Positions 28,446 through 58,964 of a stretch of 64,000 nucleotides of DNA are shown in pieces (within the stretch, counting starts at the first letter, position 1; each line of letters starts with the position of its first letter). The stretch covers positions 28,770 to 92,769 of the forward strand of contig JAUSJO010000008.1 of NCBI GenBank assembly GCA_030647205.1. The letters run 5' to 3'. Both the position numbers and the translations under genes were made by a program. This stretch comes from a bacterium. Its GTDB lineage: Bacteria > Patescibacteriota > CPR2 > UBA1875 > JAJYID01. The notes below the pieces were generated by a model, which did not search any database, was not told the origin of the DNA, and saw nothing but the letters and a program-made list of their open reading frames with translations.

Positions 28446-29549
28446 ATGAATAAAAAACTCAAAATTGCACTGTTTATAACAATCCCGATAATTATCTTAA
28501 TTTTAATAGGCCTATCTGTTTGGTTTTTCTGGCCAAAAAATAAGGTTACCGTTGAGGGCGTTCCTGAAGATGTAGTAAAGACTAAGCTTCAGTTTACTCA
28601 TGACATTTTTGACCCGACCAAAGTAAAGTTCGTGACACCGCTTGGTGAGCTAAACGGCGGATATGAGGAAGCGCAGACCATAAACGGTGTTTGCGTGAAT
28701 AACAAAACCGCCGAAGAGGTAGAAGTGTATGCGCCTGCTGATATGACGCTTGAGGATTACTCGTATTTTGTAGACCCTCGTCAAACACGCAAAGCAAACT
28801 GGCATCTCGGCTTTCGGATATCAAAAGACGTAAAGCTAAGCTTTGATCACATCACTTCGCCGATTGACAGTATTAGGGACGCCACTCCGCCCACACCGAC
28901 ATCGGGCTATGTACCGCCAAAGAAGAAACTGAATTTCAAGGCAGGGGAGCTGATAGCCAAGACATCAGGGACCGACCAGGCTCACAACTGGAACATTTAT
29001 TTGCGCGACACATTCACCAGTAATACTTTTGTAAATCAAGATAGATATGAAGCACTAAAGGATAGATATGACTACATAAACGCCACCTGCCCGTTTGACT
29101 ACTATGCGGACGCTAAAAAGCAGCTGTTCATCGCGCTGATGGGAGCAACCGCGCCTGGCCAGTCAAAAACTTGCGGTAATCCTTCCAAAGATGTAAAGGG
29201 GGCTATCTCGGGTATGTGGCATTTAACGAGAGACGGCGTCCAGGCAGATTATCAAGGCGAGTATGCCACGCCACTTAGTATTTACAAGGACTCTGCCGGC
29301 AAGATAGTGCTTTATGAGATAAACAAGAAACGTTCTCTCTTGGACAGCACAAACCCGACCTACAAAGATCCTGCGACTATTACAACATCTCATTGTTATG
29401 CGCTCACGGACTACGGTGAAGGTGAAAAACCAAAAGGGTATGCATACTTCAAGGTTGTGTCCGATATGGAAATGAAGCTTGCCTACAGCGGAACCGGCTC
29501 CTGCCCGACAACATTCCCGGAAGCCACCGCAAAGACTTACTATAGGTAG
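28446..29549 (+). CDS. Membrane-anchored or secreted hypothetical protein
   Basis: N-terminal TM 'LKIALFITIPIIILILIGLSVWFFW'. 367 aa, probably extracytoplasmic. Confidence 0.55.
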   Translation: MNKKLKIALFITIPIIILILIGLSVWFFWPKNKVTVEGVPEDVVKTKLQFTHDIFDPTKVKFVTPLGELNGGYEEAQTINGVCVNNKTAEEVEVYAPADMTLEDYSYFVDPRQTRKANWHLGFRISKDVKLSFDHITSPIDSIRDATPPTPTSGYVPPKKKLNFKAGELIAKTSGTDQAHNWNIYLRDTFTSNTFVNQDRYEALKDRYDYINATCPFDYYADAKKQLFIALMGATAPGQSKTCGNPSKDVKGAISGMWHLTRDGVQADYQGEYATPLSIYKDSAGKIVLYEINKKRSLLDSTNPTYKDPATITTSHCYALTDYGEGEKPKGYAYFKVVSDMEMKLAYSGTGSCPTTFPEATAKTYYR

Positions 29550-30247: not shown

Positions 30248-30395
30248 TTATTTTTGGCAGTACTATAGGCTGATTGGCGAACTTAAATTATATTGACAAT
30301 AGGAAATGTTTATGTTATTATATGGAAATACTTATTTCAAAAAAGAGATAAGAGAATCTTTATAAAAATCTAAAAAACCTTTGGAGGTGAGGCGG

Positions 30396-31196
30396 ATGCC
30401 TTCTCATTTTGAGAAAGCAGACCGAGGACTCAAGGCAAGCGGGGACGAGACTTTGTCAGAAAAGATGTTTTCCGCGATACTGGTACTGGCAATCGTCTAC
30501 CTTTTCTTCCCTGAAGCGATGCCCTTTAAGTTCTTCGAACTGTGGGGTATCAGAGGAAATGACGGTCCCATTGACTGGGTCCTGTCATCGTGGCCCATAC
30601 TTATTTGGGCTATAGCCGCTACCTCTTATTGTTTCCTGACCAGAAATCGTCAGGATGTCAACGACAGGGCTGAGGAGATGCTTGCAAAAGGCACACTAGT
30701 GAGTCTGTTTGCAGGCGTGGTGGAAGAAGTATGTTTCCGCTGGATACTGTTTCTGAGCTGTATCGTGGGAGCCATGGTAGGTAATTTTCTCTTCTTTGGC
30801 TTCCTGGGCTTCGGTATCGTTGAAGCAGTCCAGGTCCATATTTTGGGACCGATTGCTGACTTTTTCACCTTCGGTCACCTGAGTATATACTTGGGGAGTC
30901 CCACAAACTGGGCGATCGGAGCGGCGATCCTGTCAGCGAATGCGTTTTTCAGGAATGGCCACAAGTACCTTGGACCTCTGGGTTTCGTGAATAGCTGGTT
31001 TATTGGCATGTTCATGTTTATCCTGCTCTTTAGGTACGGACTGCTTGCCTGTATCCTGGTGCATTTCCTGTACGACTTCCTGATTTTCTCCATTCTCTAT
31101 ATTGATCGTGTTATTGAGAGAAGGTTCGGACTGGGCCTCCCGTCCAAGAGAACCGCTCCGGTCAGCTGGCTGGAAGACTTGATGGAAGAGGAGTAA
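30396..31196 (+). CDS. CPBP family intramembrane metalloprotease (CAAX protease/Abi)
   Basis: Motif 1 'VVEEVCFRWILF' (EExxxR), motif 2 'FxxxH'-like 'FTFGHL', motif 3 'HFLYDF'. The start is set to the ATG at 30396, which follows SD 'ggaggtgagg'. Confidence 0.8.
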   Translation: MPSHFEKADRGLKASGDETLSEKMFSAILVLAIVYLFFPEAMPFKFFELWGIRGNDGPIDWVLSSWPILIWAIAATSYCFLTRNRQDVNDRAEEMLAKGTLVSLFAGVVEEVCFRWILFLSCIVGAMVGNFLFFGFLGFGIVEAVQVHILGPIADFFTFGHLSIYLGSPTNWAIGAAILSANAFFRNGHKYLGPLGFVNSWFIGMFMFILLFRYGLLACILVHFLYDFLIFSILYIDRVIERRFGLGLPSKRTAPVSWLEDLMEEE

Positions 31197-31891: not shown

Positions 31892-31927
31892 AAGCCCCAG
31901 GTCGAAAGACCCGGGGCTTTTCTTTTT
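31892..31927 (+). terminator. Rho-independent terminator
   Basis: agccccaggtc-gaaa-gacccggggct followed by TTTCTTTTT. Confidence 0.7.
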
Positions 31928-32016
31928 GGGCAAATAACTATTCTCCGGAAAAGTAGTATCTCAGCTGTCCTTTTTCTTTACGCATGCTATAATTAGCCTA
32001 TTAAGAAGGATTTTTT

Positions 32017-32853
32017 ATGTATTCACCTGATAATTTTTTAAATCTGTTCCAAGGAAAAGATTATAGTACAGAAGAAGAACTAGAAAATGACTTTAAGGGC
32101 AAGATAACAGGCTTGTTTAATATCTCTAGCCAACGTTTGAAATCTCAACATCTGACAACTTCATTCGACAAAAGGCTTAGCAATAAAAGTGATGTTATTA
32201 TTTGGGGAGAAGATGACCCAGATCTAGCGCTTGTCATTTTTGAACTTAAAATTGAAAAATCAATCAGACAGTTTAAAAAAGGGAGTTATGAGGATGCAAA
32301 GAAGCAACTTCACTTATATTGCCAAGACATGAGAGCCGCTTATGGTGTCCTTTTGTCTGAAAAGAAATGCTGGATATTTAGATATGACTACAGGGGATCA
32401 AAAACAAGTCATACCGAAGTGAAAATATTACCATTATTAAACCAGATTGAAAATGAGATGACCGCAAGTGTTTCAGAAGAAGTGGATCTTAGAAGAATGG
32501 CAAAGAGGAAAGATGGTATAGAGAAGGGTCTTCTTGAAAAAAGTGCTCAAATAAGGCTAGAAACAAACAGTAGACTCGGCAAAGAAAGAGAAAGACACAA
32601 AAAGTTACTTAAATTTTATACATTTATGGCGATGGGTGCTGTCGTAATATTTTTCATAGTAGGAGGTTATTTCTATAAAGGTGCAGCTTGCGATATTAAA
32701 GGTAATACTTCTCAAAATGGTGACAAGATATATCATACAAAAGAAAGCCCCTCTTATTCCAAAGTTAAGATTGACCCAAAATATGGCGAAAAAATGTTTT
32801 GTTCTGAGAAAGAGGCTGTTAACGCTGGTTTTAGAAAATGGCAAAGCAAGTAG
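32017..32853 (+). CDS. Hypothetical protein with an N-terminal PD-(D/E)xK-like motif, one TM segment and a C-terminal conserved YH...C...AGFR motif
   Basis: 'IIWGEDDPDLALVIFELKIEKS' fits the D...ExK nuclease core. 'KKLLKFYTFMAMGAVVIFFIVGGYF' is a TM segment. The C-terminus 'IYHTKESPSYSKVKIDPKYGEKMFCSEKEAVNAGFRKW' is a recurring bacterial C-terminal motif. Confidence 0.5.
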   Translation: MYSPDNFLNLFQGKDYSTEEELENDFKGKITGLFNISSQRLKSQHLTTSFDKRLSNKSDVIIWGEDDPDLALVIFELKIEKSIRQFKKGSYEDAKKQLHLYCQDMRAAYGVLLSEKKCWIFRYDYRGSKTSHTEVKILPLLNQIENEMTASVSEEVDLRRMAKRKDGIEKGLLEKSAQIRLETNSRLGKERERHKKLLKFYTFMAMGAVVIFFIVGGYFYKGAACDIKGNTSQNGDKIYHTKESPSYSKVKIDPKYGEKMFCSEKEAVNAGFRKWQSK

Positions 32854-32900
32854 CAGCTCATCTGTCTTTTTTCTTACCCTTGTGCTAAAATAAGGGCATT

Positions 32901-35000
32901 ATGGACGCAAACAAGTCAGACATTAAAGATTTTATATATACCCCGGGTAGGTTTTTTAAAATTCCTGATTTCCAAAGACCGTATTCTTGGGATAAGGTGA
33001 ATGTCTTAAACTTCCTAGAAGACTTGAAGCAAGCAGTCAAGACAAACCAGAAGCATTTTTTCGGTAGTGTAGTATACGTGAACGAAGGGGACGAAAATAG
33101 CACGATTATAGATGGTCAGCAAAGAGTGACAACAGTCGTTTTAATGCTTACTGCAATTTACCATATTTTATTGGATAATCCCGAAAAAAGCACGATGCAT
33201 TCAGATGAGATCCTTGAAAACTATCTTTTTAACAAAAAAGATTATTATAAAGAGAAAAACCGGATCAAACTAAGAACTGTTACTACTGACGATGAAATCT
33301 ATAAACAAATATTTGAACGGGCCAACATTAGTAGTAACTGCAGGGAAAGTAAACTCTATAGATCATATGAAATATTTTACGAGCACTTTAAGGGCCAACA
33401 AAGTTTGGAAGATTATGTCAAAGGCCTTGCTTGCTTCCAAATAGTAAAGATTTTTCTGGACTCTACCGATGACAATCCACAGAAAGTTTTTGAAAGCATC
33501 AACTCAACCGGGAAGCCCCTAACCGATGGTGACAAGATCCGAAACTTTGCGTTGATGCTCAACAATAGCGAGGCCAGAGAAATGGTGTTGAACAAATATT
33601 GGAAACTCATAGAGTCTGAGCTAACCGAAATAAATAAGGATTATATCTCAGATTTCTTTAAATACCTATTAACGGCAAAACTACAAAGAGACGTAAAAAT
33701 TGATCAGGTTTATCCAGAGTTTAAAAAACTGTTTTATTCAAAAATCGATGACCGTCAAGACGATAAAGATAAACTGGAAGAATTCTACGGTGATATTCTT
33801 AATAACTTAGATTATTATAGCTTCTTAAAATTCAATAAAGACGAGGATAACGACTATAAACTAGTTAGTGATAAAGGGTTCAGGCTCAACTACCTTAAAG
33901 TAGAAACTCATTTCCCGTTTTTGATGAGCGTACTTGCGGAATATAAATCAAAAAAGATCGATGATGAAACACTGGTTAGAATTTTTGATATTCTGGAAAG
34001 TTTTCTTGCCAGGAGAATCATTTGTAATATTTACTCAACTGGTTTAAATAAGTTTTTTGCCGTTTTGCACAGAGAGATTGCCACCTATCAATCAGAATAT
34101 CCTGGTAGCAACTATGCAGATGTTTTTGCGTATATTTTGGCTAACAAAACTGGTGATTTAAGGTTCCCAAAGCATCTCGAGATAGAGGACAACTTAGAAA
34201 ACAACGAATTTTATACACAAAAAGGCATATATGTTAGATATATCCTAAGTTCAGTTGATGACAGTTCAAAGGAATCAAAGATTTTGAGACAAATCTCGGA
34301 AGGAACTCTGCCTCTCACGATTGAGCATATAATGCCGCAGACACTTAACAACGCTTGGAAAAAAGAGTTGGGACCAACCTATGATCAGATACATGATAAG
34401 TATTTGCATACTTTGCCAAACCTTACTTTGACGGGATATAACTCAAAATATTCCAACAACTCATTTAAAGACAAGAAGACAATTGAAAATGGTTTTATGG
34501 ATAGCCCACTAGTTATAAACCAGTTCATTAAAAAACTCGATATTTGGGATCTAAAGGCACTACAAAAAAGAACAAAGTGGTGGCTCAAGCAGATTGATAA
34601 GGTTTGGCCAGTCCCAGAAACCAAGTTCGCTCCAAAGATTCAAGAGACAGAAATAATTTTTGCCGAGGATGATCTCATGGGAGCAAAGATTAAAGCGATA
34701 AAGATTTTTGGGGAAACATATGACTGCAAAAACTGGATAGCTGCATACAAGTTAATACTAGAAAAGTTATTCGAAAACGAGCCAGAAATCTTCAACTGTG
34801 TTGTCTCGGACGAGTTTTTACCTAGATATATAAAAACTACAGAAGATGATTTACTAGAACCGAGGGAAATTACTGGAACACCATACTATTTTGAGGCTAG
34901 TTTAAATAATAACTACAAAAGAGATGTAGTCGCTGCATTGCTAGAATATGCAGAGATTAGTCCATCGGAAATAACGGTACTGTTGGATGAGAAAGCTTAA
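32901..35000 (+). CDS. GmrSD-like type IV restriction or anti-phage enzyme (N-terminal DUF262 ParB-like NTPase, C-terminal DUF1524 His-Me nuclease)
   Basis: DUF262 motifs 'IPDFQRPYSW' and 'IIDGQQRVTT'. The C-terminal 'TIEHIMPQT...' region resembles the DUF1524 HNH-like core. 699 aa. Confidence 0.8.
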   Translation: MDANKSDIKDFIYTPGRFFKIPDFQRPYSWDKVNVLNFLEDLKQAVKTNQKHFFGSVVYVNEGDENSTIIDGQQRVTTVVLMLTAIYHILLDNPEKSTMHSDEILENYLFNKKDYYKEKNRIKLRTVTTDDEIYKQIFERANISSNCRESKLYRSYEIFYEHFKGQQSLEDYVKGLACFQIVKIFLDSTDDNPQKVFESINSTGKPLTDGDKIRNFALMLNNSEAREMVLNKYWKLIESELTEINKDYISDFFKYLLTAKLQRDVKIDQVYPEFKKLFYSKIDDRQDDKDKLEEFYGDILNNLDYYSFLKFNKDEDNDYKLVSDKGFRLNYLKVETHFPFLMSVLAEYKSKKIDDETLVRIFDILESFLARRIICNIYSTGLNKFFAVLHREIATYQSEYPGSNYADVFAYILANKTGDLRFPKHLEIEDNLENNEFYTQKGIYVRYILSSVDDSSKESKILRQISEGTLPLTIEHIMPQTLNNAWKKELGPTYDQIHDKYLHTLPNLTLTGYNSKYSNNSFKDKKTIENGFMDSPLVINQFIKKLDIWDLKALQKRTKWWLKQIDKVWPVPETKFAPKIQETEIIFAEDDLMGAKIKAIKIFGETYDCKNWIAAYKLILEKLFENEPEIFNCVVSDEFLPRYIKTTEDDLLEPREITGTPYYFEASLNNNYKRDVVAALLEYAEISPSEITVLLDEKA

Positions 35001-35011
35001 TAAATAAAACT

Positions 35012-35734
35012 ATGGCAAGAAAACTATACGATCCGAAATCAAAAGAACAGTTTAAAATCAGCCGTACAGGTATAGAGAACTATATCCGTTGTCCGAGGTG
35101 TTTTTATATGAACCAGCGTCTTGGTATAGGTCAGCCGGGCGGATATCCTTTCACTTTAAACTCCGCCGTAGATCATCTTTTGAAAAAGGAGTTCGACATT
35201 CACAGAGCTGGCGCTACCACGCATCCTTTGATGAAACATTATGGTATAGATGCGGTTCCCTTCCAACATGAAGATATGGACAAGTGGCGTCACAACTTCA
35301 CTGGAGTCCAATATATACATAAATCAACAGGATTTTTGATATATGGCGCCGTTGATGATGTCTGGGTGGATCCAAACGGCCAGATCATGGTAGTTGACTA
35401 CAAAGCAACCTCAAAGGATGGGGAAGTAAATCTCGATGCCGAGTGGCAGGACGGGTACAAAAGACAAATGGAAATATATCAGTGGCTTCTCAGGCAAAAC
35501 GGATTCAAAGTTTCGGATACAGGATATTTTGTATATGCTAATGGGCAGAAAGACAGAAAAGCATTTGATGCAAAGCTAGAGTTTGATATCAAAATAATCC
35601 CTTATACGGGAAGTGACGGATGGGTTGAAAAAGCTATAATGGACGCAAAAAAATGTCTAGACTCTGGAGATATCCCTGACTACACTGAGGGTTGTGACTT
35701 CTGTAAGTATCAAAAAGCACTCAAACAACTTTAG
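35012..35734 (+). CDS. PD-(D/E)xK nuclease, Cas4/RecB-like with four Cys (possible Fe-S cluster)
   Basis: N-terminal 'CPRCFY', 'VDDVWVD...MVVDYKATSK' (D/EVK core), 'QMEIYQWLL' (QxxxY), and C-terminal 'CDFCKY'. There are no cas genes in the window. Confidence 0.65.
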   Translation: MARKLYDPKSKEQFKISRTGIENYIRCPRCFYMNQRLGIGQPGGYPFTLNSAVDHLLKKEFDIHRAGATTHPLMKHYGIDAVPFQHEDMDKWRHNFTGVQYIHKSTGFLIYGAVDDVWVDPNGQIMVVDYKATSKDGEVNLDAEWQDGYKRQMEIYQWLLRQNGFKVSDTGYFVYANGQKDRKAFDAKLEFDIKIIPYTGSDGWVEKAIMDAKKCLDSGDIPDYTEGCDFCKYQKALKQL

Positions 35735-35828: not shown

Positions 35829-37385
35829 ATGACCGAGGAGCAGAAAAAACAGCTTCAGACTCAACTTTGGAATATCGCCAACGAACTCCGAGGCAAAATG
35901 AATGCCGATGAGTTTCGTGACTATATTCTTGGCTTTATTTTCTATAAGTATCTTTCAGAAAAAATGCATCTTTATGCCAACGAAGTTCTTGAAGCAGACA
36001 AGATAGATTACACCGATATCAAAGAGAACACAGAAGATGGCAAAAAAATTATTGAAGTTATAAAAAAAGAATCCATAGATAAGCTTGGCTATTTTCTCAA
36101 ACCCTCAGAACTTTTTCATTCTCTGGTGGAGAGAGACGCGAACTCAAATGACATCATCGAAGATCTAGAGAGAATCCTTGGCAATATAGAAAGAAGTACT
36201 ATGGGGACTGACAGCGAGGACGATTTTGATAAACTTTTCTCAGAGCTAGACCTAAACAACTCAAAACTTGGTAGATCTGTTCATGATCGAAGTCAGCTTA
36301 TAGGGAAAGTTCTTTCTCATCTTGATAAGATAAATTTCTTTTTGGAAGATTCAAGGATAGATGTCCTTGGGGATGCTTATGAATATCTAATTGGTCAGTT
36401 TGCCAGTGGCGCCGGGAAGAAAGCAGGGGAATTCTATACTCCTCAAGAAGTTTCAGAAGTTCTAGCAAAACTTGTAACTTCGGGGAAAAAACATTTGAAA
36501 AGTGTTTACGATCCAACTTGCGGTTCTGGCTCATTGCTTTTGAGAGTTGCCAGATATGTCGACGATGTTGGCTTTTTCTATGGACAAGAAATGAACCACA
36601 CTACATACAACCTTGCTCGTATGAACATGATTCTTCACGATGTTCGTTATGACAGATTCAATATCAGGCAGGAAGACACTCTGGAGCATCCACAACATTT
36701 AGAAGAACGATTTGAAGCAATTGTTGCCAACCCACCATTTGGCGCCGAATGGTCAGCTCATCAGACATTTTTGAATGATGATCGCTTTAGCCAGTATGGC
36801 AGACTAGCGCCAAAGAAGAAGGCCGACTATGCCTTTATAGAACACATGATTTATCAGCTGGATGATAATGGAACCATGGCAACCGTTATGCCTCATGGCG
36901 TGCTTTTCCGTGGTGCTGCAGAGGGACACATTCGCGAGCATCTCATCAAAGAAAAGAATTATCTAGATGCTGTTATCGGACTTCCTGCAAATCTCTTTTA
37001 CGGCACGAGTATTTCTGCTTGTCTCCTAGTTTTTCAAAAATGCCGTAAGAACTCTGATAATGTTCTCTTTATAGATGCAAGCAAACATTTTGTAAAAGGC
37101 AAGAACCAAAACAAACTTCAGGCCGAAGACATAGAAAAGATTATCAAAACTTATCGAGAAAGAAAAGTAGAGGATAAATACAGTTATGTGGCAAGTCTCA
37201 AGGAAATAGCCGAAAATGACTACAACCTGAACATTCCTATTTACGTAGACACTTTTGAAGAGGAAGAGTTGATAGATCTCGCAGAAGTTACTCAAGAAAT
37301 AAAAAAGATTGATAAAGAGATGGTGGGTGTTGATAAAAAGATAGCAGAATATTGTAAGGAGATCGGCATCAATCCGCCGTTTTAA
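35829..37385 (+). CDS. hsdM: Type I restriction-modification system DNA methyltransferase subunit M
   Basis: N-terminal HsdM_N region. SAM motif I 'DPTCGSGSLL' and catalytic motif IV 'IVANPPFGAEW' (NPPF) of N6-adenine MTases. Confidence 0.9.
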   Translation: MTEEQKKQLQTQLWNIANELRGKMNADEFRDYILGFIFYKYLSEKMHLYANEVLEADKIDYTDIKENTEDGKKIIEVIKKESIDKLGYFLKPSELFHSLVERDANSNDIIEDLERILGNIERSTMGTDSEDDFDKLFSELDLNNSKLGRSVHDRSQLIGKVLSHLDKINFFLEDSRIDVLGDAYEYLIGQFASGAGKKAGEFYTPQEVSEVLAKLVTSGKKHLKSVYDPTCGSGSLLLRVARYVDDVGFFYGQEMNHTTYNLARMNMILHDVRYDRFNIRQEDTLEHPQHLEERFEAIVANPPFGAEWSAHQTFLNDDRFSQYGRLAPKKKADYAFIEHMIYQLDDNGTMATVMPHGVLFRGAAEGHIREHLIKEKNYLDAVIGLPANLFYGTSISACLLVFQKCRKNSDNVLFIDASKHFVKGKNQNKLQAEDIEKIIKTYRERKVEDKYSYVASLKEIAENDYNLNIPIYVDTFEEEELIDLAEVTQEIKKIDKEMVGVDKKIAEYCKEIGINPPF

Positions 37386-37389
37386 TTTT

Positions 37390-38244
37390 ATGCTTTCTGA
37401 AGATGAAATAGTTAAAGAGATGATAAAGGCGAACGCGACGGAAGCGTATAGGGACGCCGCTCAACCAGCGGTTAGAGTAGTCGGGCAGTCAATAGCGCAA
37501 TGTGTGTCATTATTTGTAACACCCATCGGCAGGATGGCGGCGATTTTAGAAAAAAATCTTCACCTTTATTTAGATAAACTTGATAGATATAAAGAGAAAG
37601 AACTTATATCTCCAGATGTTAGAATTCTAGTGCCGATACTGGAAAAGTTGAGGTATACGGAAGACATTGTAGTGGCAGAATATTACGCAGAGATACTAGC
37701 AAAGGCATCTACCAAGGAAAATTCAAAAAGGGTGCTGATCTCATTTATCGAAATTTTAAATAGATTAAGCTCTGACGAGATCAAAATATTAGAGTATATA
37801 AACTCTAACGATAATATTGTTGATTTTGAACCAATAACTGAAGAGGAGAGCGGACAACTGAACTTACCTGCTGGTTTTTGCAAAGCTGTTATTAAGGGTG
37901 CGGTTCCCGTTATTGATATTAAAATTGTTCAAAGTGGCACTACAGGTTTTTCGATTGCCGGCAGAAACTGCAATTTATTGCCCGATCTAATTAATCTTTC
38001 TGGGCCAAGGAATATTGATTCATATGTAGACAATATGATCTCACTCGGTCTCCTGGAGCGACCACATGACAGATCTTTCGCAAACAAGAAAATTTATTCA
38101 AAGCTTGAAAATGACCCAAATGTTATAGAGTTACAAAAGGGCTTAGCGAAAAGCCAAAGGATTGAGTTTGATAGGGCACAATTGGCAATAACTAGTTTAG
38201 GCGTAAAACTTTTAGAACTTTGCTCAACAGGGGTTAAGCCATGA
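37390..38244 (+). CDS. Hypothetical protein embedded between hsdM and hsdS (possible Abi-like accessory defense gene)
   Basis: 284-aa ORF translationally coupled on both sides (a 4-nt gap from hsdM and an ATGA overlap with hsdS). It has no TRD-like repeats and no confidently recognised domain. Confidence 0.55.
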   Translation: MLSEDEIVKEMIKANATEAYRDAAQPAVRVVGQSIAQCVSLFVTPIGRMAAILEKNLHLYLDKLDRYKEKELISPDVRILVPILEKLRYTEDIVVAEYYAEILAKASTKENSKRVLISFIEILNRLSSDEIKILEYINSNDNIVDFEPITEEESGQLNLPAGFCKAVIKGAVPVIDIKIVQSGTTGFSIAGRNCNLLPDLINLSGPRNIDSYVDNMISLGLLERPHDRSFANKKIYSKLENDPNVIELQKGLAKSQRIEFDRAQLAITSLGVKLLELCSTGVKP

Positions 38245-39488
38245 TGGTGGAAACAACAAATGTTCCCAAACTTAGGTTTAAGGAATTTAAGGATGCGTGG
38301 CAAACTCCTACGTTTGGTACTGTATTTGAACGTGTAACTACGAAAAACAAAGAAAATAACCAAAATATCCTAACAATTTCAGCTCAGGATGGACTAATCG
38401 GCCAAGATAAATTTTTTACTAAACTAGTCTCCGCTAAGGATGTGACTGGCTATTATCTATTACGAAAAAATGACTTTGCTTACAATAAGAGTTATTCAAA
38501 GGGTTACCCCATGGGGGCGATAAAGAGACTTTTCAAAGATAACGCTGGAGTTGTATCAACTTTGTACATCTGCTTTAGATCGAAAGAACCGAGAAGCATT
38601 ATATTTTATGAGCAGTATTTTGATGCTGGGAAATTAAATATTGAGATTGAAAAGATAGCGCAAGAAGGGGCAAGGAATCATGGCTTATTAAACATGAGTG
38701 TTGTTGATTTTTTTAAAATGTCTATCTTAAGACCAAACATTACAGAACAAGAAAAGATTGCGGGGTTTTTGGGGAGTGTTGATGAGAAAATTGGGAAATT
38801 GGAAGAGAAGAAAAAGCAGTTTGAGAAATATAAAAAAGGTGTAATGCAGGCGATTTTCTCGCAAAAAATCCGCTTTAAAGATAAGACTGGAATGGAATTT
38901 CCGGATTGGGAGGAAAAGGAATTGGGTGAAATCGGTAAGACATACAACGGACTAACCGGTAAATCTGCGGAAGACTTTGGAAAAGGGTTTCCATATATTA
39001 CTTATAAGCAAATTTTTGACGGCTCTAATGTAGATGTTTCAAAATGTAGTTTTGTGAACATTAAAGAAAATGAAGCACAAAGTAAAGCGAAGAAAGGTGA
39101 CGTGTTTTTTACTACATCTTCTGAGACGCCCCTAGAAGTTGGTTTTTCCTCAGTCTTGTTAGAAGATGTTGAGGATGTGTATCTTAATAGTTTTTGTTTC
39201 GGATTTAGACTGTTTGATAATAAAAAAACTTTGCCATATTTTCTAAAGTTCTTATTTAGAAGCGAGTATTTTAGAAGAAAAACAATAAGATTAGCACAAG
39301 GTAGTACTAGATATAATATCTCAAAAATTGGTCTTTTAAAAACAATTATTCAAATACCGGATTCAGAAGAACAGGGGAAAATCGCCGAATTTTTGACAAG
39401 CTTGGATGATAAAATTGATTTAATAAATAAGGAGTTGGGGAAGGTTAAAGAATTCAAAAAAGCCCTTCTCCAGCAGATGTTTGTGTGA
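38241..39488 (+). CDS. hsdS: Type I restriction-modification system specificity subunit S
   Basis: Two target-recognition domains separated by the conserved coiled-coil repeats ('...KKKQFEKYKKGVMQAIFSQKIRF' and '...ELGKVKEFKKALLQQMF'). Confidence 0.85.
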   Translation: MMVETTNVPKLRFKEFKDAWQTPTFGTVFERVTTKNKENNQNILTISAQDGLIGQDKFFTKLVSAKDVTGYYLLRKNDFAYNKSYSKGYPMGAIKRLFKDNAGVVSTLYICFRSKEPRSIIFYEQYFDAGKLNIEIEKIAQEGARNHGLLNMSVVDFFKMSILRPNITEQEKIAGFLGSVDEKIGKLEEKKKQFEKYKKGVMQAIFSQKIRFKDKTGMEFPDWEEKELGEIGKTYNGLTGKSAEDFGKGFPYITYKQIFDGSNVDVSKCSFVNIKENEAQSKAKKGDVFFTTSSETPLEVGFSSVLLEDVEDVYLNSFCFGFRLFDNKKTLPYFLKFLFRSEYFRRKTIRLAQGSTRYNISKIGLLKTIIQIPDSEEQGKIAEFLTSLDDKIDLINKELGKVKEFKKALLQQMFV

Positions 39489-41128
39489 TGATTATCAAAC
39501 TTTTAAATAATTCTGATAAAAACCTATTTGTTGGTTTGGCTGGTCCTGGAACTGGGAAAAGCCATACTTTTAAGACTATTATTAATTCAGGTGAATTTAA
39601 GGGCAAGAAGATACTTATATTATCGTTTATTAACAAATTAGTTAACGACCTAGAAAGAGAGTTCGATGATTTTGACAATGTTAGAGTTTCCACACTACAT
39701 TCGTTTGCGTTGCAGAAGTACAAGAACTTGTTTCGTGAAACAACAATAGAGCTCGAACAAGACCTAGACGGTTTGATAAGTGAAGATTATTTCTATATTA
39801 ATAAAGAGAAAATTAGTTACGAAGCAAGGCTATGCGAGGGTAATCTTGATAAAGAGGAGGAGGAGTTTTATTTGGGGCGGGCTGAATTTTATAGCAATGA
39901 AGGGAAACTTTATTCTTTCAACTCAATAATTCATGCAGTCAACAGTATCTTCTCAAACAATAACGATAAGATCCCAGATGAATATGACTTAATACTCGTA
40001 GATGAGTTTCAGGACTTTAATCAACTAGAATATAACTTGATCAAGTTGTTGAACAAGAAAAATAAAGTTATCTTAGTCGGTGACGATGATCAGTCCTTGT
40101 ATGACTGGAAGCACGCACGGCCAGAGCTAATACGTGCACTATATAATCATGAAGGAACAGGTGAATTTTCGTTAGACTTCTGCTACAGATGCACACAAGT
40201 TGTTGTTGACGCGGTAAATAGCCTGATATCAAACGCGAAGAGTGATGGTTACCTTCAAGATAGAGCAGATGAGAAGAAATTTCTATATCCCACAGAAAGG
40301 ACTGATGACAAGAATGAAATAAGCGCAAAACATTCTTGTATCGATTTTGTTTCGGGGGTGAGTGGCCATCAATTGATATACCAGCTAGCGACAAGAATAC
40401 GAAAAGAAGTAGAAGAACATAATGGCGGCAGAGTACTTGTATTAGTTCCATCTTTTCTTAAACAATCAATTTATGAAGGTCTTTCTGGGGAGGGTTTTAA
40501 TGTAGTTGAGTTTGAATTATTTGGGAATGAAGGACGCAATAAGATAAAACACAAGTATCTAATTGAGGCATTTAAAACGTTAGCTATAAGAAAAACAGAT
40601 AACTTAATGTTAAGGAAGATAATTCCGTTATATCTATCGGACTCTGAAATTAGAAAACTAATAATAAATTGTGATAATCTCCAAAAGAAAATATGGTACG
40701 TTTTGGATGGAGAAACAAAAGTTCGCATTGAGCAAGATATAGCATTGTTTAAAAAAGCAAAGCAAGGAAAGACTGAACTAACGGCCGATGAGTTGAAGAG
40801 ATTTAGTGAAATATTTAACCTAAAGAATTTAATATCAAAGATGATAAAAGGTTTTGCGCCGAATACTCGGGGCGCTATAGAGGTTGAGATGACAACAGTG
40901 ATGAGCTCTAAAGGACTTTCGGCTGATTTCGTGTATTATATTGGGGTTGATGATTATATTATGCTTGATAAAGAAACAGGCGAGCTAACTGACCAAAAAA
41001 TCTGTGAGTTTCTAGTTGGGATAACAAGAGCGAAGAAAAAACTAACATTATTCTCAGCAAATGAGGGCGAGCCAGTAATACTGAAATTTATTGATAGTAA
41101 ATTCGTGAGGAGAAGTAAAACCAAATGA
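39485..41128 (+). CDS. UvrD/PcrA-like SF1 helicase-family protein embedded between hsdS and hsdR
   Basis: Walker A 'GLAGPGTGKSHTF', motif II 'LILVDEFQDFNQ', motif III 'VLVGDDDQSLYDW', and the C-terminal UvrD_C-like 'GLSADFVYYIGVDD...VGITRAKKKLTLF'. At 547 aa it is a minimal UvrD-like core. It is overlap-coupled to both neighbours. Confidence 0.75.
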   Translation: MMIIKLLNNSDKNLFVGLAGPGTGKSHTFKTIINSGEFKGKKILILSFINKLVNDLEREFDDFDNVRVSTLHSFALQKYKNLFRETTIELEQDLDGLISEDYFYINKEKISYEARLCEGNLDKEEEEFYLGRAEFYSNEGKLYSFNSIIHAVNSIFSNNNDKIPDEYDLILVDEFQDFNQLEYNLIKLLNKKNKVILVGDDDQSLYDWKHARPELIRALYNHEGTGEFSLDFCYRCTQVVVDAVNSLISNAKSDGYLQDRADEKKFLYPTERTDDKNEISAKHSCIDFVSGVSGHQLIYQLATRIRKEVEEHNGGRVLVLVPSFLKQSIYEGLSGEGFNVVEFELFGNEGRNKIKHKYLIEAFKTLAIRKTDNLMLRKIIPLYLSDSEIRKLIINCDNLQKKIWYVLDGETKVRIEQDIALFKKAKQGKTELTADELKRFSEIFNLKNLISKMIKGFAPNTRGAIEVEMTTVMSSKGLSADFVYYIGVDDYIMLDKETGELTDQKICEFLVGITRAKKKLTLFSANEGEPVILKFIDSKFVRRSKTK

Positions 41129-43986
41129 CAGCACAATCAGAACAAGCATTAGAGAATAGTTTAGTCAAACAGCTCGAGGGGATGAGATACGAGCGGGTTG
41201 TTATTTATGACGAGGAAATGCTCTTTGTGAACCTGAAGATTCAGCTGGAAAAACACAATGGTATAAAGCTGAGCGATAAAGAGTTTGAGAGGATTCTAAA
41301 TCATTTGGACAAAGGGAATGTTTTTGATCGGGCGAAGATATTGCGAGACAAGATGCATCTGGTTCGAGATGATGGCATGAGTGCATACATAGAGTTTCTA
41401 AACACTCGAGAGTGGTGCCAGAACGAGTTTCAGGTGGCAAATCAGATCACAAATACGGGTGAGTATAAGACTAGGTATGATGTAACTATTTTGATCAACG
41501 GACTCCCTCTGGTTCAGATAGAGCTAAAAAGAAGAGGACTGGAGCTAAAGGAAGCTTTCAACCAAGTAAATCGATATCGCCGGCACTCATACACCGCTGC
41601 TCGTGGTCTTTTCCAGTACATTCAAATCTTTGTTATTAGCAACGGAGTAAATACAAAGTACTATGCGAACACGGTGAGCTACATGACAGACAAGAAGCAG
41701 TCCTTCAAACAAACATTTTTCTGGGCCAATAAGAGTAATAAGAACATAAAAAAGCTGGATGATTTTGCCAAGATATTTCTGGAGAGATGCCATCTGGCGA
41801 AGATGATTACAAAGTACACAGTACTTTCTGAAGCGGACAAGATTCTGATGGTTTTGCGACCTTATCAGTACTATGCGGTTGAAGCGATAGTTGATCGAGT
41901 AAAGAACTCGAAAAAGAATGGTTATATCTGGCACACCACTGGAAGCGGCAAGACATTGACAGCATTTAAGGCGAGCCAGACCTTGATAGATTCACCCGAT
42001 GTCTATAAAGTCGTTTTTGTCGTCGATCGGAACGATTTGGATTACCAGACGATAAAAGAGTTTAATAAGTTCAGAGCGGGAAGTGTTGACGGAACTGATA
42101 ATACTCGGATGCTGGTGAAGCAGTTCGAAGATGAGACGAATGACGCAAAACTGATCGTGACGACCATACAAAAGATTAATACTGCTATCAGTAAAGAACG
42201 ACATCTGAAGAAAATGGAAAAGCATAAAGACAAGAAAATAGTCTTTATTTTCGATGAGTGCCACAGGAGCCAGTTTGGTGAGACGCACAAAAGGATTACT
42301 CAGTATTTTCAGAATTATCAAATGTTTGGCTTTACCGGTACACCGATATTCGCCGAGAACGCTGTGGGTTCTGGGGCTGACAAAAAGACAACTGCCCAGC
42401 TTTTCGATGAGTGTCTGCATAAATATGTGATTACCGATGCGATATCTGATGAAAATGTTTTACGATTTCTAGTAGAGTATGTGGGTAGATACAGGAGAAA
42501 GGCAGATAGTGAGAACGACATAGATATAGAGGTTGAAGGGATTGATACAAAAGAGCTCATGGAATCGTCTAAGAGGATTGAAAAGATTACCGACTACATA
42601 ATCGCAAACCATGATAGAAAAACTCATTCCAAAGAATTTACGGCTATGTTTTGTACCTCGAGTATTGATGTTTTGACAAGATATTATGAAACTTTCAGGA
42701 AGAAGAAAGAAGCGGGAGAGCATAATCTAAAAATCGCCACAATCTTTAGTTTTGCCGCAAATGAGGAAGATAAAGACGCTGATGGAATGATAGGTGAGGC
42801 GGATGTTGATATAGAAAAGGACCAGCCTATCAATAAACACTCAAGGGATAAGCTCGAAGAATACATCGGTGATTACAATAAAATGTTTGGTACTAACTTC
42901 ACAACAAAAGACAACACCAGCTTTTATAACTATTATAAAAATATTGCACAGAGAGTGAAGGAAAGGGACATTGATATTTTAATAGTGGTAAACATGTTTC
43001 TGACCGGATTTGACGCGAAAACTTTAAATACTCTATATGTTGATAAAAACTTGCGATATCACGGACTGATCCAGGCTTACTCAAGGACAAACAGAATATT
43101 AAATGAACGTAAGTCGCATGGCAACATTGTAGTTTTTAGAAACTTAAAGAAGGCGACCGACCGAGCCGTAGCCCTCTTTAGCAATAAAGATGCAAAGGAA
43201 ATAATATTTTTAGAACCATATAAAAAATATGTTGAGCAATTCAATGGTGTTTTGCTCGACTTAAGGAATTTGGCACCCACACCGGACTATGTGGATGATC
43301 TAGTTAGTGAAACAGATCAGCTAGTTTTCGTAACTACATTTAGAGAATTAACTCGTTTGAAAAATGTTTTAACTACTTTTGCTGACTTTTCTTTCTCAGA
43401 TACAAGGATATCGGAGCAAGAATTTGAGGATTACAAAAGTAAGTATCTAGATATATATGACAAAGTTAAGAGCGATAATGAGCATGAAAAAGTTTCTATC
43501 TTAGATGATGTTGATTTTGAAATTGAGTTAATAAGAAGGGATGAAATAAACATTGATTACATCTTGAGACTCCTTGCTTTATATATTGACGCAGATGAAA
43601 CAGAGCGTAAGCGTATCGTGAAAAACGTTTCAGATATCATGTCAGGAGATTTAGCTCTAAGAAGCAAGAAGGAATTAATTGAAAAGTTCATAGAAGAGAA
43701 CATTCCTGAAATTAAAGATTCGACAGAAGTGGATGGCGCTTTTGAAGAGTTTTGGCGAGAAGAACAATTGAAAGAATTTGAGAAGATTTGTAAAGAAGAA
43801 GGCTTAATGGATGAAATGCTGCAGAAGGTAATAGATAGATATTTATACACGGGGCTTAAGCCAAAAAGGCATGATTTGGCAAAAACATTGAAAACCCAGC
43901 CAAAAGTTCTAGAGAGGGACAATATAATCAAAAGGATTGGGAAGAAAGTAGATAAATTCATCGAAACGTTTTTGGATGGGGTGTAA
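41125..43986 (+). CDS. hsdR: Type I restriction enzyme endonuclease/helicase subunit R
   Basis: HsdR_N nuclease region, SF2 motor motifs 'HTTGSGKTLTAF' (motif I) and 'IFDECHRSQFG' (DEAH-like motif II), and a long C-terminal helical domain. 953 aa. Confidence 0.9.
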   Translation: MTAQSEQALENSLVKQLEGMRYERVVIYDEEMLFVNLKIQLEKHNGIKLSDKEFERILNHLDKGNVFDRAKILRDKMHLVRDDGMSAYIEFLNTREWCQNEFQVANQITNTGEYKTRYDVTILINGLPLVQIELKRRGLELKEAFNQVNRYRRHSYTAARGLFQYIQIFVISNGVNTKYYANTVSYMTDKKQSFKQTFFWANKSNKNIKKLDDFAKIFLERCHLAKMITKYTVLSEADKILMVLRPYQYYAVEAIVDRVKNSKKNGYIWHTTGSGKTLTAFKASQTLIDSPDVYKVVFVVDRNDLDYQTIKEFNKFRAGSVDGTDNTRMLVKQFEDETNDAKLIVTTIQKINTAISKERHLKKMEKHKDKKIVFIFDECHRSQFGETHKRITQYFQNYQMFGFTGTPIFAENAVGSGADKKTTAQLFDECLHKYVITDAISDENVLRFLVEYVGRYRRKADSENDIDIEVEGIDTKELMESSKRIEKITDYIIANHDRKTHSKEFTAMFCTSSIDVLTRYYETFRKKKEAGEHNLKIATIFSFAANEEDKDADGMIGEADVDIEKDQPINKHSRDKLEEYIGDYNKMFGTNFTTKDNTSFYNYYKNIAQRVKERDIDILIVVNMFLTGFDAKTLNTLYVDKNLRYHGLIQAYSRTNRILNERKSHGNIVVFRNLKKATDRAVALFSNKDAKEIIFLEPYKKYVEQFNGVLLDLRNLAPTPDYVDDLVSETDQLVFVTTFRELTRLKNVLTTFADFSFSDTRISEQEFEDYKSKYLDIYDKVKSDNEHEKVSILDDVDFEIELIRRDEINIDYILRLLALYIDADETERKRIVKNVSDIMSGDLALRSKKELIEKFIEENIPEIKDSTEVDGAFEEFWREEQLKEFEKICKEEGLMDEMLQKVIDRYLYTGLKPKRHDLAKTLKTQPKVLERDNIIKRIGKKVDKFIETFLDGV

Positions 43987-43995
43987 AAATTTCTA

Positions 43996-44128
43996 AGCAA
44001 GCTCTCAGCTTTATCTTCCTAAATAGGTAAATTTAAAAATCTACCGATTTTTTGTGCTAGAATATTCTTATGTCAAATGCATTTCGGAAAATCATTGAGT
44101 TTATAAAGGCGAAAAAGATAAAATTATG
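43996..44128 (+). repeat. Direct repeat DR1 (~133 bp) flanking the fic gene; it contains a truncated duplicate of the promoter and first 17 codons of the 45453 gene
   Basis: The 49-bp core 'gctagaatattcttatgtcaaatgcatttcggaaaatcattgagtttata' (44056-44104) is identical to 45439-45487. The flanks are about 80% identical. Confidence 0.85.
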
Positions 44129-44246: not shown

Positions 44247-45380
44247 ATGAAAATTGAAATAGGTAAATTCGTAAGCCAACCAAGAGGGTATAAGTCCTTT
44301 GTCACCAATCCCTTTCCTCCTAAGGGTATTTTTGGCTTTCCTGCTAAAACGCTTGTGAAGGCAGATAAGGCTACTAGGCTTGTCGGTAAGCTGGATGGTG
44401 TTACACACGAGTTGCCGGATGTGGACTTCTTCCTATATATGTTTATTATTAAGGATGCTGAGGCATCCTCTCAAATAGAAGGAACAAAAGCAACAATCGT
44501 TGATGTTTTAGAGGCCAATGCTGGGATAGCGCCAAAAGAGACAGATTCAAGCGATATTGACTTTTATATTGAGGCCTTAAATTATGGGATTGTAAGAATA
44601 AAAAAGTTACCCCTGTCCTTGAGATTTATTAGAGAGTTACACTCTAAACTTATGACGGGTGCAAGAGCGACTCATTTTTCAGATCCTGGCAACTTTCGAA
44701 ATTCTCAAAACTGGATAGGTGGTGCTACGTTGTCTGATGCGAGTTACGTTCCACCAGCTGTTACTGATATGAATCCAGCTCTCAGTGATTTGGAAAAATT
44801 TTTACACAATGAGGAAGTATTGCCATTAATCCAGGCAGCTATTGCTCATGCTCAGTTTGAGACGATTCATCCTTTTCTTGATGGTAATGGTAGAACCGGT
44901 CGACTTCTTATCACCCTTTTGTTATTGGAAAGGAAGTTATTAGATAAACCGGTATTATTTCTTTCTTGGTATTTTAAAAAACATCAAAAGGTCTATTATC
45001 AGAAACTCGGCGATTACCATGATGGTAAGGTGGATGAATGGGTTAATTTTTTCCTAGATGGGGTGATCGAAACCGCCGAAGATTCCATTAGAATCAGCAA
45101 GAAGATTTTTCAATTAAGGGAAGAAGATATGTGCAAGATTCATGCCCTTGGCAAACGAGAAGCTGAGAGTGGCATTTTGGTATTGAGAAATTTATTTAAG
45201 ATGCCAATCATAAATTCCAGAATAGTTATGGGATGGACCGGCTTCACTAGAGCAGGATCTATAAAACTGATAGAGCGCTTTGTAAGTCTTGGGATATTGA
45301 TCGAGAGAAAAACAGAAGGTAAGGAAAAAGTTTATTCATATGTAAATTATTTAAAAGCGTTTACTAGGGATAACAAATAA
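44247..45380 (+). CDS. fic: Fic family protein (class II, with an internal inhibitory motif)
   Basis: Fic motif 'HPFLDGNGRTGRLL' (HPFx[DE]GNGRxxR). The N-terminal 'SSQIEGTKAT' fits the [ST]xxxE[GN] auto-inhibitory helix. The C-terminal domain is winged-helix-like. Confidence 0.9.
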   Translation: MKIEIGKFVSQPRGYKSFVTNPFPPKGIFGFPAKTLVKADKATRLVGKLDGVTHELPDVDFFLYMFIIKDAEASSQIEGTKATIVDVLEANAGIAPKETDSSDIDFYIEALNYGIVRIKKLPLSLRFIRELHSKLMTGARATHFSDPGNFRNSQNWIGGATLSDASYVPPAVTDMNPALSDLEKFLHNEEVLPLIQAAIAHAQFETIHPFLDGNGRTGRLLITLLLLERKLLDKPVLFLSWYFKKHQKVYYQKLGDYHDGKVDEWVNFFLDGVIETAEDSIRISKKIFQLREEDMCKIHALGKREAESGILVLRNLFKMPIINSRIVMGWTGFTRAGSIKLIERFVSLGILIERKTEGKEKVYSYVNYLKAFTRDNK

Positions 45381-45389
45381 TAAAGTAAT

Positions 45390-45508
45390 TAGCAAACTCT
45401 CAGCTTTATCTCTTATTACTCATTAAAAACAATTTTGCGCTAGAATATTCTTATGTCAAATGCATTTCGGAAAATCATTGAGTTTATAGAGGCGAAGAAG
45501 ATATTGGT
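45390..45508 (+). repeat. Direct repeat DR2 (partner of DR1); it overlaps the true promoter and 5' end of the 45453 gene
   Basis: See DR1. The offset between the identical cores is 1383 bp. Confidence 0.85.
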
Positions 45509-46304: not shown

Positions 46305-46403
46305 CATTCCAATATTCTCAAGAATGTAAGAATGTCGTTTTTTTGTTTCTGTATACTTGTTTCGCCACACATATTCCAATATTCTTGAGAATGTAAGAAT
46401 ATT
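46296..46403 (+). promoter_or_regulatory. Two copies of a ~32-bp palindromic operator-like repeat upstream of arsR
   Basis: 'acattccaatattctcaagaatgtaagaatgt' (46305-46336) and 'atattccaatattcttgagaatgtaagaatatt' (46371-46403). Each contains the inverted repeats attct-N3-agaat and acattc...gaatgt. A third copy lies at 46686-46718. Confidence 0.6.
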
Positions 46404-46416
46404 TTTTGGAGGGATT

Positions 46417-46686: not shown

Positions 46687-46718
46687 CATTCCAACATTCT
46701 GGAGAATGTGAGAATGTT
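46686..46718 (+). promoter_or_regulatory. Third copy of the arsR-associated palindromic repeat, downstream of arsR
   Basis: 'acattccaacattctggagaatgtgagaatgtt'. Confidence 0.5.
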
Positions 46719-46849
46719 AGTTCTAAGTAAGATTTTAGTCGTATCTTGAAAGTTTATTGTAAAAACGCTCAATGAAAAACATCGAGCATATGTTAGTATT
46801 TGTATAATATATGTTGGTTTCTTTAAACTATAAGTGAAGGGAGATAAAA

Positions 46850-58943: not shown

Positions 58944-58964
58944 GAAGGACTGGAAAACGATTTG

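Follow-up and report, generated by a model that had tools for sequence, protein, structure and literature searches.

A GmrSD-type enzyme beside a solo Cas4-like nuclease in a Patescibacteria defense island: separately inherited genes and a possible facultative coupling

Results

Three consecutive genes in a low-GC, strain-variable island

We analyzed a 64,000-nucleotide (nt) stretch of a bacterial genome (GTDB lineage Bacteria; Patescibacteriota; CPR2; UBA1875; JAJYID01), taken from contig JAUSJO010000008.1 of the GenBank assembly GCA_030647205.1 (positions 28,770 to 92,769, forward strand) and referred to below as the window. Our subject is a run of three genes, A, B and C, directly upstream of a type I restriction-modification (R-M) operon: A encodes a membrane-anchored PD-(D/E)xK protein, B a GmrSD-family enzyme, and C a Cas4-like nuclease (Table 1). 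A first-pass annotation of the sequence had placed these genes in a row before the operon, at the front end of a defense island. Their order and coordinates held, with all three open reading frames (ORFs) on the + strand and hsdM starting at 35829. The GC content is ~0.35 across 32-45 kb, compared with 0.40-0.45 in the flanks, delimiting a low-GC island, and homology of the backbone to the sister strain L002 (sampled loci are numbered L001 onward) stops at 31926 and resumes at 46753. An NCBI metagenome-assembled genome (locus tag Q7S53_05605) encodes exact matches (100% identity) to both A and B.

B is an intact GmrSD-type enzyme with a conserved C-terminal extension

The assignment of B to the GmrSD-type DUF262/DUF1524 enzymes was borne out by both Pfam profiles, GmrSD_N (DUF262, PF03235; 3.7e-34, 119 bits against a cut-off of 33.2) and GmrSD_C (DUF1524, PF07510; 7.1e-24, 84.7 bits against a cut-off of 23), and its strongest PADLOC models were “Orf5” (1.5e-113) and HEC-06 (1.8e-55). 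The DGQQR and EHIMP motifs are invariant across 18 homologues, in an alignment reaching down to 43% identity, as are residues E475-H476, N507, N514 and N519. B is an intact single-chain GmrSD/HEC-06-like enzyme. HEC-06 is a single-gene phage defense whose DGQQR and EHICP motifs, the latter equivalent to EHIMP, are essential (bioRxiv 10.1101/2024.01.29.577857), and Eco94GmrSD-type enzymes act as single proteins (PMC4437046). By analogy with these relatives, B would be a type IV (modification-dependent) endonuclease that depends on NTP and cleaves the modified DNA of phages. Its position beside a type I R-M operon is well known for GmrSD-family genes (PMC4619093).

Homologues of B number more than 6300, and the best 120 listed are mostly ~700 amino acids (aa) long and align over their full length, which makes the last ~130 aa of B a conserved part of its subfamily. 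The Pfam SeqA profile (PF03925) was matched by 11 of the 18 B-family tails (best 2.5e-5), and a profile built from the tails found five SeqA chains in the PDB as its best consistent matches (E 0.014-0.067), covering nearly the whole domain. The tail is probably a SeqA-like DNA-reading domain, a view that is tempered by the window’s own copy, which scores below the SeqA cut-off (0.009, 16.5 bits against 25.5). We speculate that the tail could read DNA or its methylation or other modification.

C is a fixed solo Cas4-like nuclease

For C, the Cas4-like fold and the CPRC and CDFC cysteine pairs proposed from its sequence were both recovered. The protein matches Pfam PDDEXK_1 (PF12705; 1.1e-12), and a fold search placed it in the Cas4/Dna2/AddB type, with Cas4 structures as best matches (7mi4, 4ic1, 8d3l); searches of the PDB sequences with C or its profile returned chance matches to cellulases only. 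Its motifs are CPRC (aa 27-30), DD115-116, D129-Y-K131, Q152...Y156 and CDFC (aa 228-231). In a 30-sequence alignment of the C family, C27, C30, C228, C231, D115-D116, D129-Y-K131, Q152 and Y156 are invariant. The gene calls of the closest relatives, L001 and L002, begin C at Met33 (208 aa) and lose CPRC; since this motif is invariant in the family, the 240-aa start is correct. A weak PADLOC Cas4 match was also found, and C stays under the cut-offs of the curated Cas4 families (PF01930, 16.8 bits against 22.7; TIGR00372, 35.3 against 65). The reading of C as a CRISPR Cas4 was rejected on these cut-offs together with the gene’s context: as the first-pass annotation had noted, C stands without cas neighbors. 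No cas domain was found on any ORF scanned within 28-46 kb with the family libraries, and searches of the 64-kb window turned up neither repeats of the CRISPR-like or tandem type nor any tRNA gene or Rfam match.

The C family comprises at least 8000 protein clusters; the best 120 matches are 63-100% identical, and the named ones come from Patescibacteria. The gene is encoded in at least 556 GTDB species of Patescibacteria at 63-70% identity. C is a fixed, vertically conserved gene; its product keeps the RecB-type catalytic residues intact and has a CxxC…CxxC site predicted to bind a metal or an iron-sulfur (Fe-S) cluster. What is known of related families suggests a metal-dependent DNA-end-processing exonuclease, probably acting 5'-3', with a role in general DNA maintenance. 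Solo-Cas4 genes found in CPR bacteria (the Candidate Phyla Radiation) have been described as vertically inherited and as typical of genomes lacking CRISPR-Cas, their role being framed as “defence or repair” (PMC5704561). Several homologues (P0010, P0016, P0019, P0036, P0051, P0083 and P0105) carry low-complexity C-terminal tails ending in …LF, which resemble an interaction tip of the sliding-clamp or SSB type; C of the window lacks a tail of this kind.

Presence and absence of A, B and C in close relatives

Comparison of close relatives revealed which of the three genes travel together. L001 carries the arrangement of the window (B 100%, C 100%). L002 retains the B+C block (84% at the nucleotide level; B 90%, C 95%); A gives way there to a DUF5666 gene and a two-component system, and another type I R-M system stands in for the operon of the window. 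B-C is also retained in L089 (B 80%, C 93%) and in L091 (B 79%, C 90%), where an MmeI-type enzyme follows. L083 has no B; a homologue of A (A') abuts C' (82%), and hsdR follows. C is the constant element, flanked on both sides by cassettes that can replace one another: A, B and the R-M systems. As sister strains lack A or B and never C, the three genes do not form an obligate system, and the presence/absence patterns largely refute such a system. Of the defense-island description, the part that stands is that B lies beside a type I R-M operon in a variable island; C is not cargo of that island. Genes of the Shedu (SduA_C), Vsr/Dcm, Fic and Pol-beta NTase types occur in other islands with A-, B- or C-family genes (L092:7896-8957, L084:5534-6601). 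Members of the A, B and C families repeatedly have a Fic-type gene nearby: the SoFic gene of the window, one in L084, and two immediate neighbors of C.

Close homologues of B recurrently adjoin a Cas4-like nuclease gene

Whether a Cas4-like gene recurs beside GmrSD homologues was a question raised by the first-pass annotation, and among close homologues it does. We compared eight contexts of the B subfamily, counted as independent; the statistics ignore kinship, and the control loci were drawn from another collection (IMG/VR) than the B contexts. In the window lineage, B is followed by C. In L092/93 (B 71%), B is convergent with a C-family gene (50% identity), the two overlapping by 4 nt, and Shedu and Vsr/Dcm genes come next. 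The remaining adjoining genes belong to DUF2779, a second solo Cas4-like family. In L094/95 (B 68%), DUF2779 follows B after 26 nt in a region that resembles a mobile element, and in L090 (B 66%) a Cas4/DUF2779 gene split by an insertion sequence lies directly upstream of B. In L096 (B 58%), B follows hsdR-M-S, and in L099 (B 46%) it follows a PLD-helicase and an MmeI-type gene; in both, DUF2779 comes 4 nt after B. No Cas4-like gene was found within 5 kb in L097/98 (B 51%) or L100-102 (B 44%). Overall, a C-type or DUF2779-type nuclease gene directly adjoins B in 6/8 contexts, compared with 0/80 IMG/VR loci whose GmrSDs have <=33% identity (Fisher p = 5e-8). The two inspected regions around plasmid homologues of ~30% identity (H1, H3) likewise held no Cas4 neighbor, so the association is limited to the close B subfamily. 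In the islands with several defense genes (the window, L094, L096 and L099), B is always the gene that touches the nuclease, and the flanks are unrelated among L094/95, L096 and L099. A ~350-aa Zn-ribbon protein (30% identity between copies, 3.5e-44) accompanies GmrSD and DUF2779 at L090:5112-6185 and L096:8966-9991, in differing orders (nuclease-B-Zn-ribbon and B-nuclease-Zn-ribbon), and may be a third recurrent component.

DUF2779 is a fusion of a solo-Cas4-like domain with a DEDD exonuclease and is quasi-essential in JCVI-syn3.0 (PMC13621843, PMC3985635). It has a Cas_Cas4 match above the cut-off. Comparison with the C family by hhalign gave no significant similarity, and we therefore treat the two nuclease families as analogous or only distantly related. 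Downstream of DUF2779 in five IMG/VR loci (L187-L191) lie trypsin-like, Hsp70-like and KAP NTPase genes.

Neighborhoods of the C family

Centering the comparison on C, we examined loci from 80 species. No neighbor family occurs in more than 10 loci, and the 150 immediate neighbors spread over 163 Pfam families, the commonest being ATP-cone+Mrr_cat (6), GmrSD_N (3), PDDEXK_1 (3), TspO and MgtC. No cas genes were found within 10 kb of C in any of these loci, by neighbor clustering and Pfam counts. A full GmrSD_N+GmrSD_C gene flanks C in only one of the 80 loci. The first-pass annotation had named a conserved housekeeping exonuclease, present in relatives without GmrSD, as what would refute its reading, and C fits that description. 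DUF262-type ORFs as a class do lie close to C: all seven are within 3.3 kb of it, a zone that holds 41% of the bases (p = 0.002), and four of the seven are immediate neighbors (odds ratio 9, p = 0.007). They are diverse, comprising GmrSD_N joined to HNH, HEPN or FecR domains, a DndB-like form and the one full GmrSD. The commonest immediate upstream neighbor of C, in 6-8/80 species, is an ATP-cone+Mrr_cat protein of ~284 aa (for example, L007:9118-9972), encoded on the same strand with a median gap of ~37 nt; it is another nuclease-type gene coupled to C.

A belongs to a small family of membrane-anchored nuclease-like proteins

The three elements read from the sequence of A, namely a PD-ExK motif, a transmembrane (TM) helix and a C-terminal Cys/His motif, were all found. 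Residues D59...E76-x-K78 and Q97...Y101 are present; the family shows no variation at D59 and K78 and very little at E76, Y101 and Q103. The Pfam HSDR_N_2 profile (PF13588) was matched by 20 of the 24 family members at E <=0.01 (best 1.5e-9), the window copy itself remaining under the cut-off (0.098, 13.2 bits against 25). An AF2 model from a 3-sequence alignment is of low confidence (pLDDT 59), and its order of elements, alpha-beta-beta-beta-alpha-beta-beta, fits a PD-(D/E)xK core. The C-terminal YH...C...AGFR motif corresponds to the “sunset” domain, NCBIfam NF051437 (4e-12, 46 bits against a cut-off of 27), which is modeled with pLDDT ~80. The sole hydrophobic segment (aa 197-215, Kyte-Doolittle 2.18) is preceded by six Lys/Arg residues and followed by two, which predicts that the N-terminus is inside and the sunset domain outside the cell; the nuclease domain would be cytoplasmic.

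The family is tiny: an exhaustive HMMER search of 1.84 billion proteins with the N-terminal 150 aa found only ~30 clusters (50% identity). All members examined have the N-terminal domain, followed in almost all by a hydrophobic (TM) segment, and the exterior part varies, with sunset domains (one to three), a KTSC or an FN3-like domain, or nothing at all. Profile searches of the PDB with the family gave no matches, scans of IMG/VR found no members, and A-like proteins were absent from the 80 C-centered species loci (tblastn, hidden Markov model and motif searches). In other sunset proteins, the domain is joined to a ToxR-like winged helix-turn-helix (wHTH)+TM protein or to a secreted SNase, suggesting a role in extracytoplasmic sensing or anchoring; a literature search on “sunset domain” returned nothing relevant on function. 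We speculate that the sunset domain of A senses something outside the cell. The three contexts available for the family are A-B-C, A'-C' with zero gap, and A''-DUF2779 with overlapping genes, so that in all three (3/3) at most one gene separates the family member from a Cas4-like gene. A is an independent, dispensable cassette.

Other features of the island and the window

The features located in the window are collected in Table 1. The 36 nt at 32861-32896, which overlap the promoter-like element of B, are kept in L002. A similar promoter-like motif, GTC(C)T5-6CTT(T)AC…TGCTAWAAT, precedes A, B and a gene (28446-29549) whose 367-aa product has a TM segment at its N-terminus; we considered this shared motif as a cassette junction or recombination site and rejected it, as it resembles the ordinary terminator plus extended -10 promoter layout of this organism. 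The 367-aa protein is absent from L002, as is a 271-aa Rce1/CAAX-protease-like membrane protein (30381-31196).

In the type I R-M operon, HsdM, HsdS and HsdR are all present and intact, and the start and stop codons of the embedded UvrD/GajB-like helicase overlap those of hsdS and hsdR. Genes embedded in type I R-M operons form a described “guilt-by-embedding” pattern, which the Abi_alpha gene and the helicase fit here. The SoFic gene lies between direct repeats of two lengths, 71 nt (96% identical) and 30 nt (83%), at 43987-44120 and 45382-45503. The repeated sequence contains the promoter-like region of the gene that follows (45453-46304) together with its first 17 codons, so that a truncated copy of the beginning of that gene is found upstream of SoFic, an arrangement resembling what a cassette insertion would leave behind. 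Where the variable island ends on the right (46299-46722), a 42-nt, partly palindromic repeat (…CATTCCAATATTCT..AGAATGTAAGAATGT…) occurs three times around a small ORF that reads by eye as a putative wHTH repressor; the repeats could be operator sites. Farther away, a 164-aa ORF (58449-58943) lies between two copies of a 77-nt repeat (70% identical; 58249-58325 and 58963-59039), composed of two hairpins plus a T-run.

Table 1 Genes, domains and regulatory features located in the window
Feature	Coordinates	Strand	Basis
Terminator-like hairpin and T-run; ends the conserved backbone just before the variable island	31896..31927	+	read from sequence
Promoter-like element 5' of A (…GTCCTTTTTCTTTAC…TGCTATAAT, extended -10)	31962..31993	+	consensus match alone
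Gene A, membrane-anchored PD-(D/E)xK protein, 278 aa	32017..32853	+	
A aa 1-138, predicted cytoplasmic HsdR-N-terminal-type PD-(D/E)xK domain	32017..32430	+	family-level HSDR_N_2 matches
A aa 197-219, single TM helix	32605..32673	+	hydropathy
A aa 227-276, predicted extracytoplasmic sunset domain (C225…YH239-240…C262…AGFR)	32695..32844	+	NCBIfam NF051437
Putative promoter-like element 5' of B (…GTCTTTTTTCTTAC…TGCTAAAAT)	32854..32891	+	read from sequence
Gene B, GmrSD-family (HEC-06-like) type IV restriction enzyme (by analogy), 699 aa	32901..35000	+	
B aa 16-216, DUF262/GmrS ParB-like NTPase domain	32946..33548	+	Pfam
B aa 71-75, DGQQR motif	33111-33125	+	
B aa 423-560, DUF1524/GmrD His-Me-finger nuclease domain	34167..34580	+	Pfam
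B aa 475-479, EHIMP motif (EHIMPQ 475-480)	34323-34337	+	
B aa 612-690, probable SeqA-C-terminal-like domain in the ~130-aa C-terminal extension	34734..34970	+	profile matches
Gene C, Patescibacteria-wide solo Cas4-like (PDDEXK_1) nuclease, 240 aa	35012..35734	+	
Type I R-M operon hsdM-(Abi_alpha)-hsdS-(UvrD/GajB-like helicase)-hsdR	35829..43986	+	Pfam, PADLOC
hsdM	35829-37385	+	
Abi_alpha/PADLOC PDC-S47 gene, between hsdM and hsdS	37390-38244	+	
hsdS	38241-39488	+	
UvrD/GajB-like helicase, between hsdS and hsdR	39485-41128	+	
hsdR	41125-43986	+	
SoFic-type Fic gene, bracketed by direct repeats	44247..45380	+	PADLOC SoFic 1.5e-105

Discussion

Our best explanation of this locus is that A, B and C are three separately inherited genes in a Patescibacteria defense island built around the fixed C. 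B has its own promoter-like element, and C begins 11 nt after the stop of B with no terminator in between, so B and C are probably co-transcribed. From the repeated adjacency of B to a solo Cas4-type gene and the interchange of C-type and DUF2779-type nucleases, we infer a facultative functional coupling of restriction to a solo-Cas4 end-processing nuclease, to which we assign even odds (a probability of roughly 0.5). The junctions to the nuclease that count for the coupling measure 0-26 nt. Under this proposal B, and perhaps A, would cut DNA, and the Cas4-like exonuclease would degrade or process the resulting ends; C would remain independent of B, the coupling being facultative. That C degrades the cleavage products of B in particular is speculative. 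In E. coli, RecBCD acts on restricted DNA ends. On the earlier question of whether the neighboring genes work with GmrSD or on their own, the data speak strongly against an obligate partnership, as B and C occur without A in L002 and A' and C' without B in L083; the recurrent adjacency of B to a Cas4-like gene leaves room for cooperation. In a broader and doubtful version of the proposal, solo Cas4-type nucleases (the 240-aa family and DUF2779) would form a common back-end exonuclease, with SeqA-tailed GmrSDs and the A family as front-end endonucleases that preferentially share an operon with them, together making up a two-component “cut-then-chew” type IV module with interchangeable nucleases.

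Several observations weigh against the coupling. Across the 80 species, C lies mostly beside housekeeping genes (MnmA, YchF, UDG, PolA and tRNA synthetases, including seryl-), so adjacency to GmrSD is not needed for C. HEC-06 defends alone in E. coli (bioRxiv 10.1101/2024.01.29.577857), and B therefore probably needs no partner. Between L096 and L099, the DUF2779 proteins are 77% identical and the B proteins only 49%, an incongruence indicating that the pair is not strictly co-evolving. In the five IMG/VR loci, DUF2779 lies directly downstream of unrelated defense genes: Gabija-like AAA_15/TOPRIM and UvrD genes in L188 and L189, ResIII/RE_endonuc and a PIF1 helicase in L187, a type ISP R-M gene in L190, and a TnsA-like 713-aa protein in L191. 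This position is explained equally well by a cargo hot-spot beside a conserved gene and by an accessory nuclease shared among systems. The sample of B contexts is also small (n = 8), carries no phylogenetic correction and is set against a control from another collection.

The main rival account holds that A, B and C are functionally unrelated and that the flanks of a conserved C (or of DUF2779, in other lineages or mobile elements), as a hot-spot for recombination or integration, simply collect defense cassettes, GmrSD among them, that make no use of the nuclease; we regard it as possible and less likely than the coupling. Both flanks of C vary between close strains, with A or a two-component system upstream and three R-M systems downstream; in a minority of species, type I R-M, OLD-family, DndB-like and diverse DUF262 genes and serine recombinases lie near C; and the SoFic cassette in its 71-nt, 96%-identical direct repeats is a sign of cassette-type insertion in the island. 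The succession of unrelated systems before DUF2779, the self-sufficiency of HEC-06, the incongruent divergences of B and DUF2779, and the report that solo-cas4 genes evolve as ordinary vertically inherited genes (PMC5704561) point the same way. Chance accumulation does not readily account, however, for the contact of B with the nuclease in every multi-defense island, across gaps of 4-26 nt that look operonic, for the presence of the same B subfamily beside two distantly related nuclease families in four arrangements, or for the lack of any such adjacency in the 80 distant GmrSD loci.

At the opposite extreme, A, B and C, or B and C, would constitute one defense system, with GmrSD requiring the Cas4-like and PD-ExK proteins as subunits. 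The genes follow one another closely on a single strand, the B-C adjacency is held in four related strains, and every A-family context has a Cas4-like gene next to it or one gene away. We nevertheless consider an obligate system very unlikely: A is dispensable in L002 and B in L083, the B homologues of L097/98 and L100-102 do without a nearby Cas4-like gene, and C is found in hundreds of species, with a full GmrSD at its side in a single sampled locus. Eco94GmrSD, BrxU and HEC-06, moreover, act as single proteins (PMC4437046; bioRxiv 10.1101/2024.01.29.577857). The reading of C as an orphaned adaptation Cas4, with cas1, cas2 and CRISPR partners elsewhere in the genome, is the most improbable. 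The fold of C is closest to Cas4, and weak PADLOC and TIGRFAM matches agree; C nonetheless stays under the curated cut-offs, no cas gene was found within 10 kb in the 80 species loci, and no CRISPR array lies in the window. The canonical cysteine layout of Cas4 and AddB is C…CxxCx5C, as opposed to the CxxC…CxxC of C. Solo-Cas4 is, besides, typical of CPR genomes without CRISPR-Cas (PMC5704561).

The role of solo-Cas4 in CPR and DPANN, given as “defence or repair”, has been in question since at least 2017 (PMC5704561), and the adjacency of the B subfamily to solo Cas4-type nucleases of two families that swap offers a testable lead on it. If the coupling is functional, type IV restriction would gain a new accessory component, and the removal of restricted DNA in organisms with minimal repair machinery would be accounted for; if only a hot-spot effect is at work, the locus is an ordinary defense island beside a conserved gene. 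The SeqA-like tail also suggests how the B subfamily might read DNA or its modification. Judged against the searchable literature, the repeated GmrSD-solo-Cas4 adjacency with interchangeable nucleases, the SeqA-like tail of a GmrSD subfamily, and the small family joining an HsdR-N domain, a TM helix and a sunset domain are new; GmrSD beside type I R-M (PMC4619093) and solo-Cas4 in CPR (PMC5704561) were already known.

Comparison with known systems

Like Eco94GmrSD, BrxU, SspE and HEC-06, B is a single chain with a DUF262 DGQQR motif, a long linker and the EH…N…N His-Me motif of DUF1524, and its place beside type I R-M is typical of the family. It departs from the family in its conserved extra C-terminal domain of ~130 aa, resembling SeqA-C, and in the recurrence of its subfamily beside a solo Cas4-like nuclease; the word “Cas4” is absent from the text of the GmrSD papers PMC4619093 and bioRxiv 10.1101/2024.01.29.577857. 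To solved structures (SspE, a DUF262 protein), B shows weak sequence matches over the first ~100 residues only.

C shares with the solo-Cas4 proteins of CPR and DPANN its location outside cas loci, its over-representation in small-genome Patescibacteria and its vertical conservation (PMC5704561). The same study already noted R-M adjacency of solo-Cas4 for DPANN, and the Solo-Cas4 of M. mazei is not virus-induced (PMC12501428). C differs from these proteins in scoring as PF12705 rather than PF01930, in its CxxC…CxxC layout, and in its linkage specifically to DUF262/GmrSD-type genes and a membrane nuclease. DUF2779 (PF11074; MMSYN1_0389 of JCVI-syn3.0) is also solo and Cas4-like and takes the position of C beside B in L090, L094, L096 and L099, and its quasi-essentiality in the minimal cell suggests a basic DNA-processing role. 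Unlike C, it is ~495 aa long, has no cysteine pair at the N-terminus and includes a fused 3'-5' exonuclease of the DEDD/RNase H-like type. With CRISPR Cas4 (PF01930/TIGR00372), C has in common the RecB motifs, four conserved cysteines and its best structural matches; it differs in lying under the cut-offs, in its cysteine spacing and in having no cas1/cas2 or CRISPR nearby.

The N-terminus of A carries the D…ExK…QxxxY signature of the HsdR N-terminal domain (PF13588), and its family matches HSDR_N_2. Unlike HsdR, A has no helicase or motor module, is membrane-anchored and has no Pfam family of its own. Its architecture, for which the searchable literature gives no description, joins a predicted cytoplasmic nuclease through one TM helix to an external sunset domain and parallels that of the ToxR-like bitopic sunset proteins, in which a cytoplasmic DNA-binding or nuclease domain is likewise followed by one TM helix and an external sunset domain. 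Finally, although C has no helicase subunit, the proposed order of events would resemble that of RecBCD and AddAB: an endonuclease break, after which a RecB-fold exonuclease destroys the fragments.

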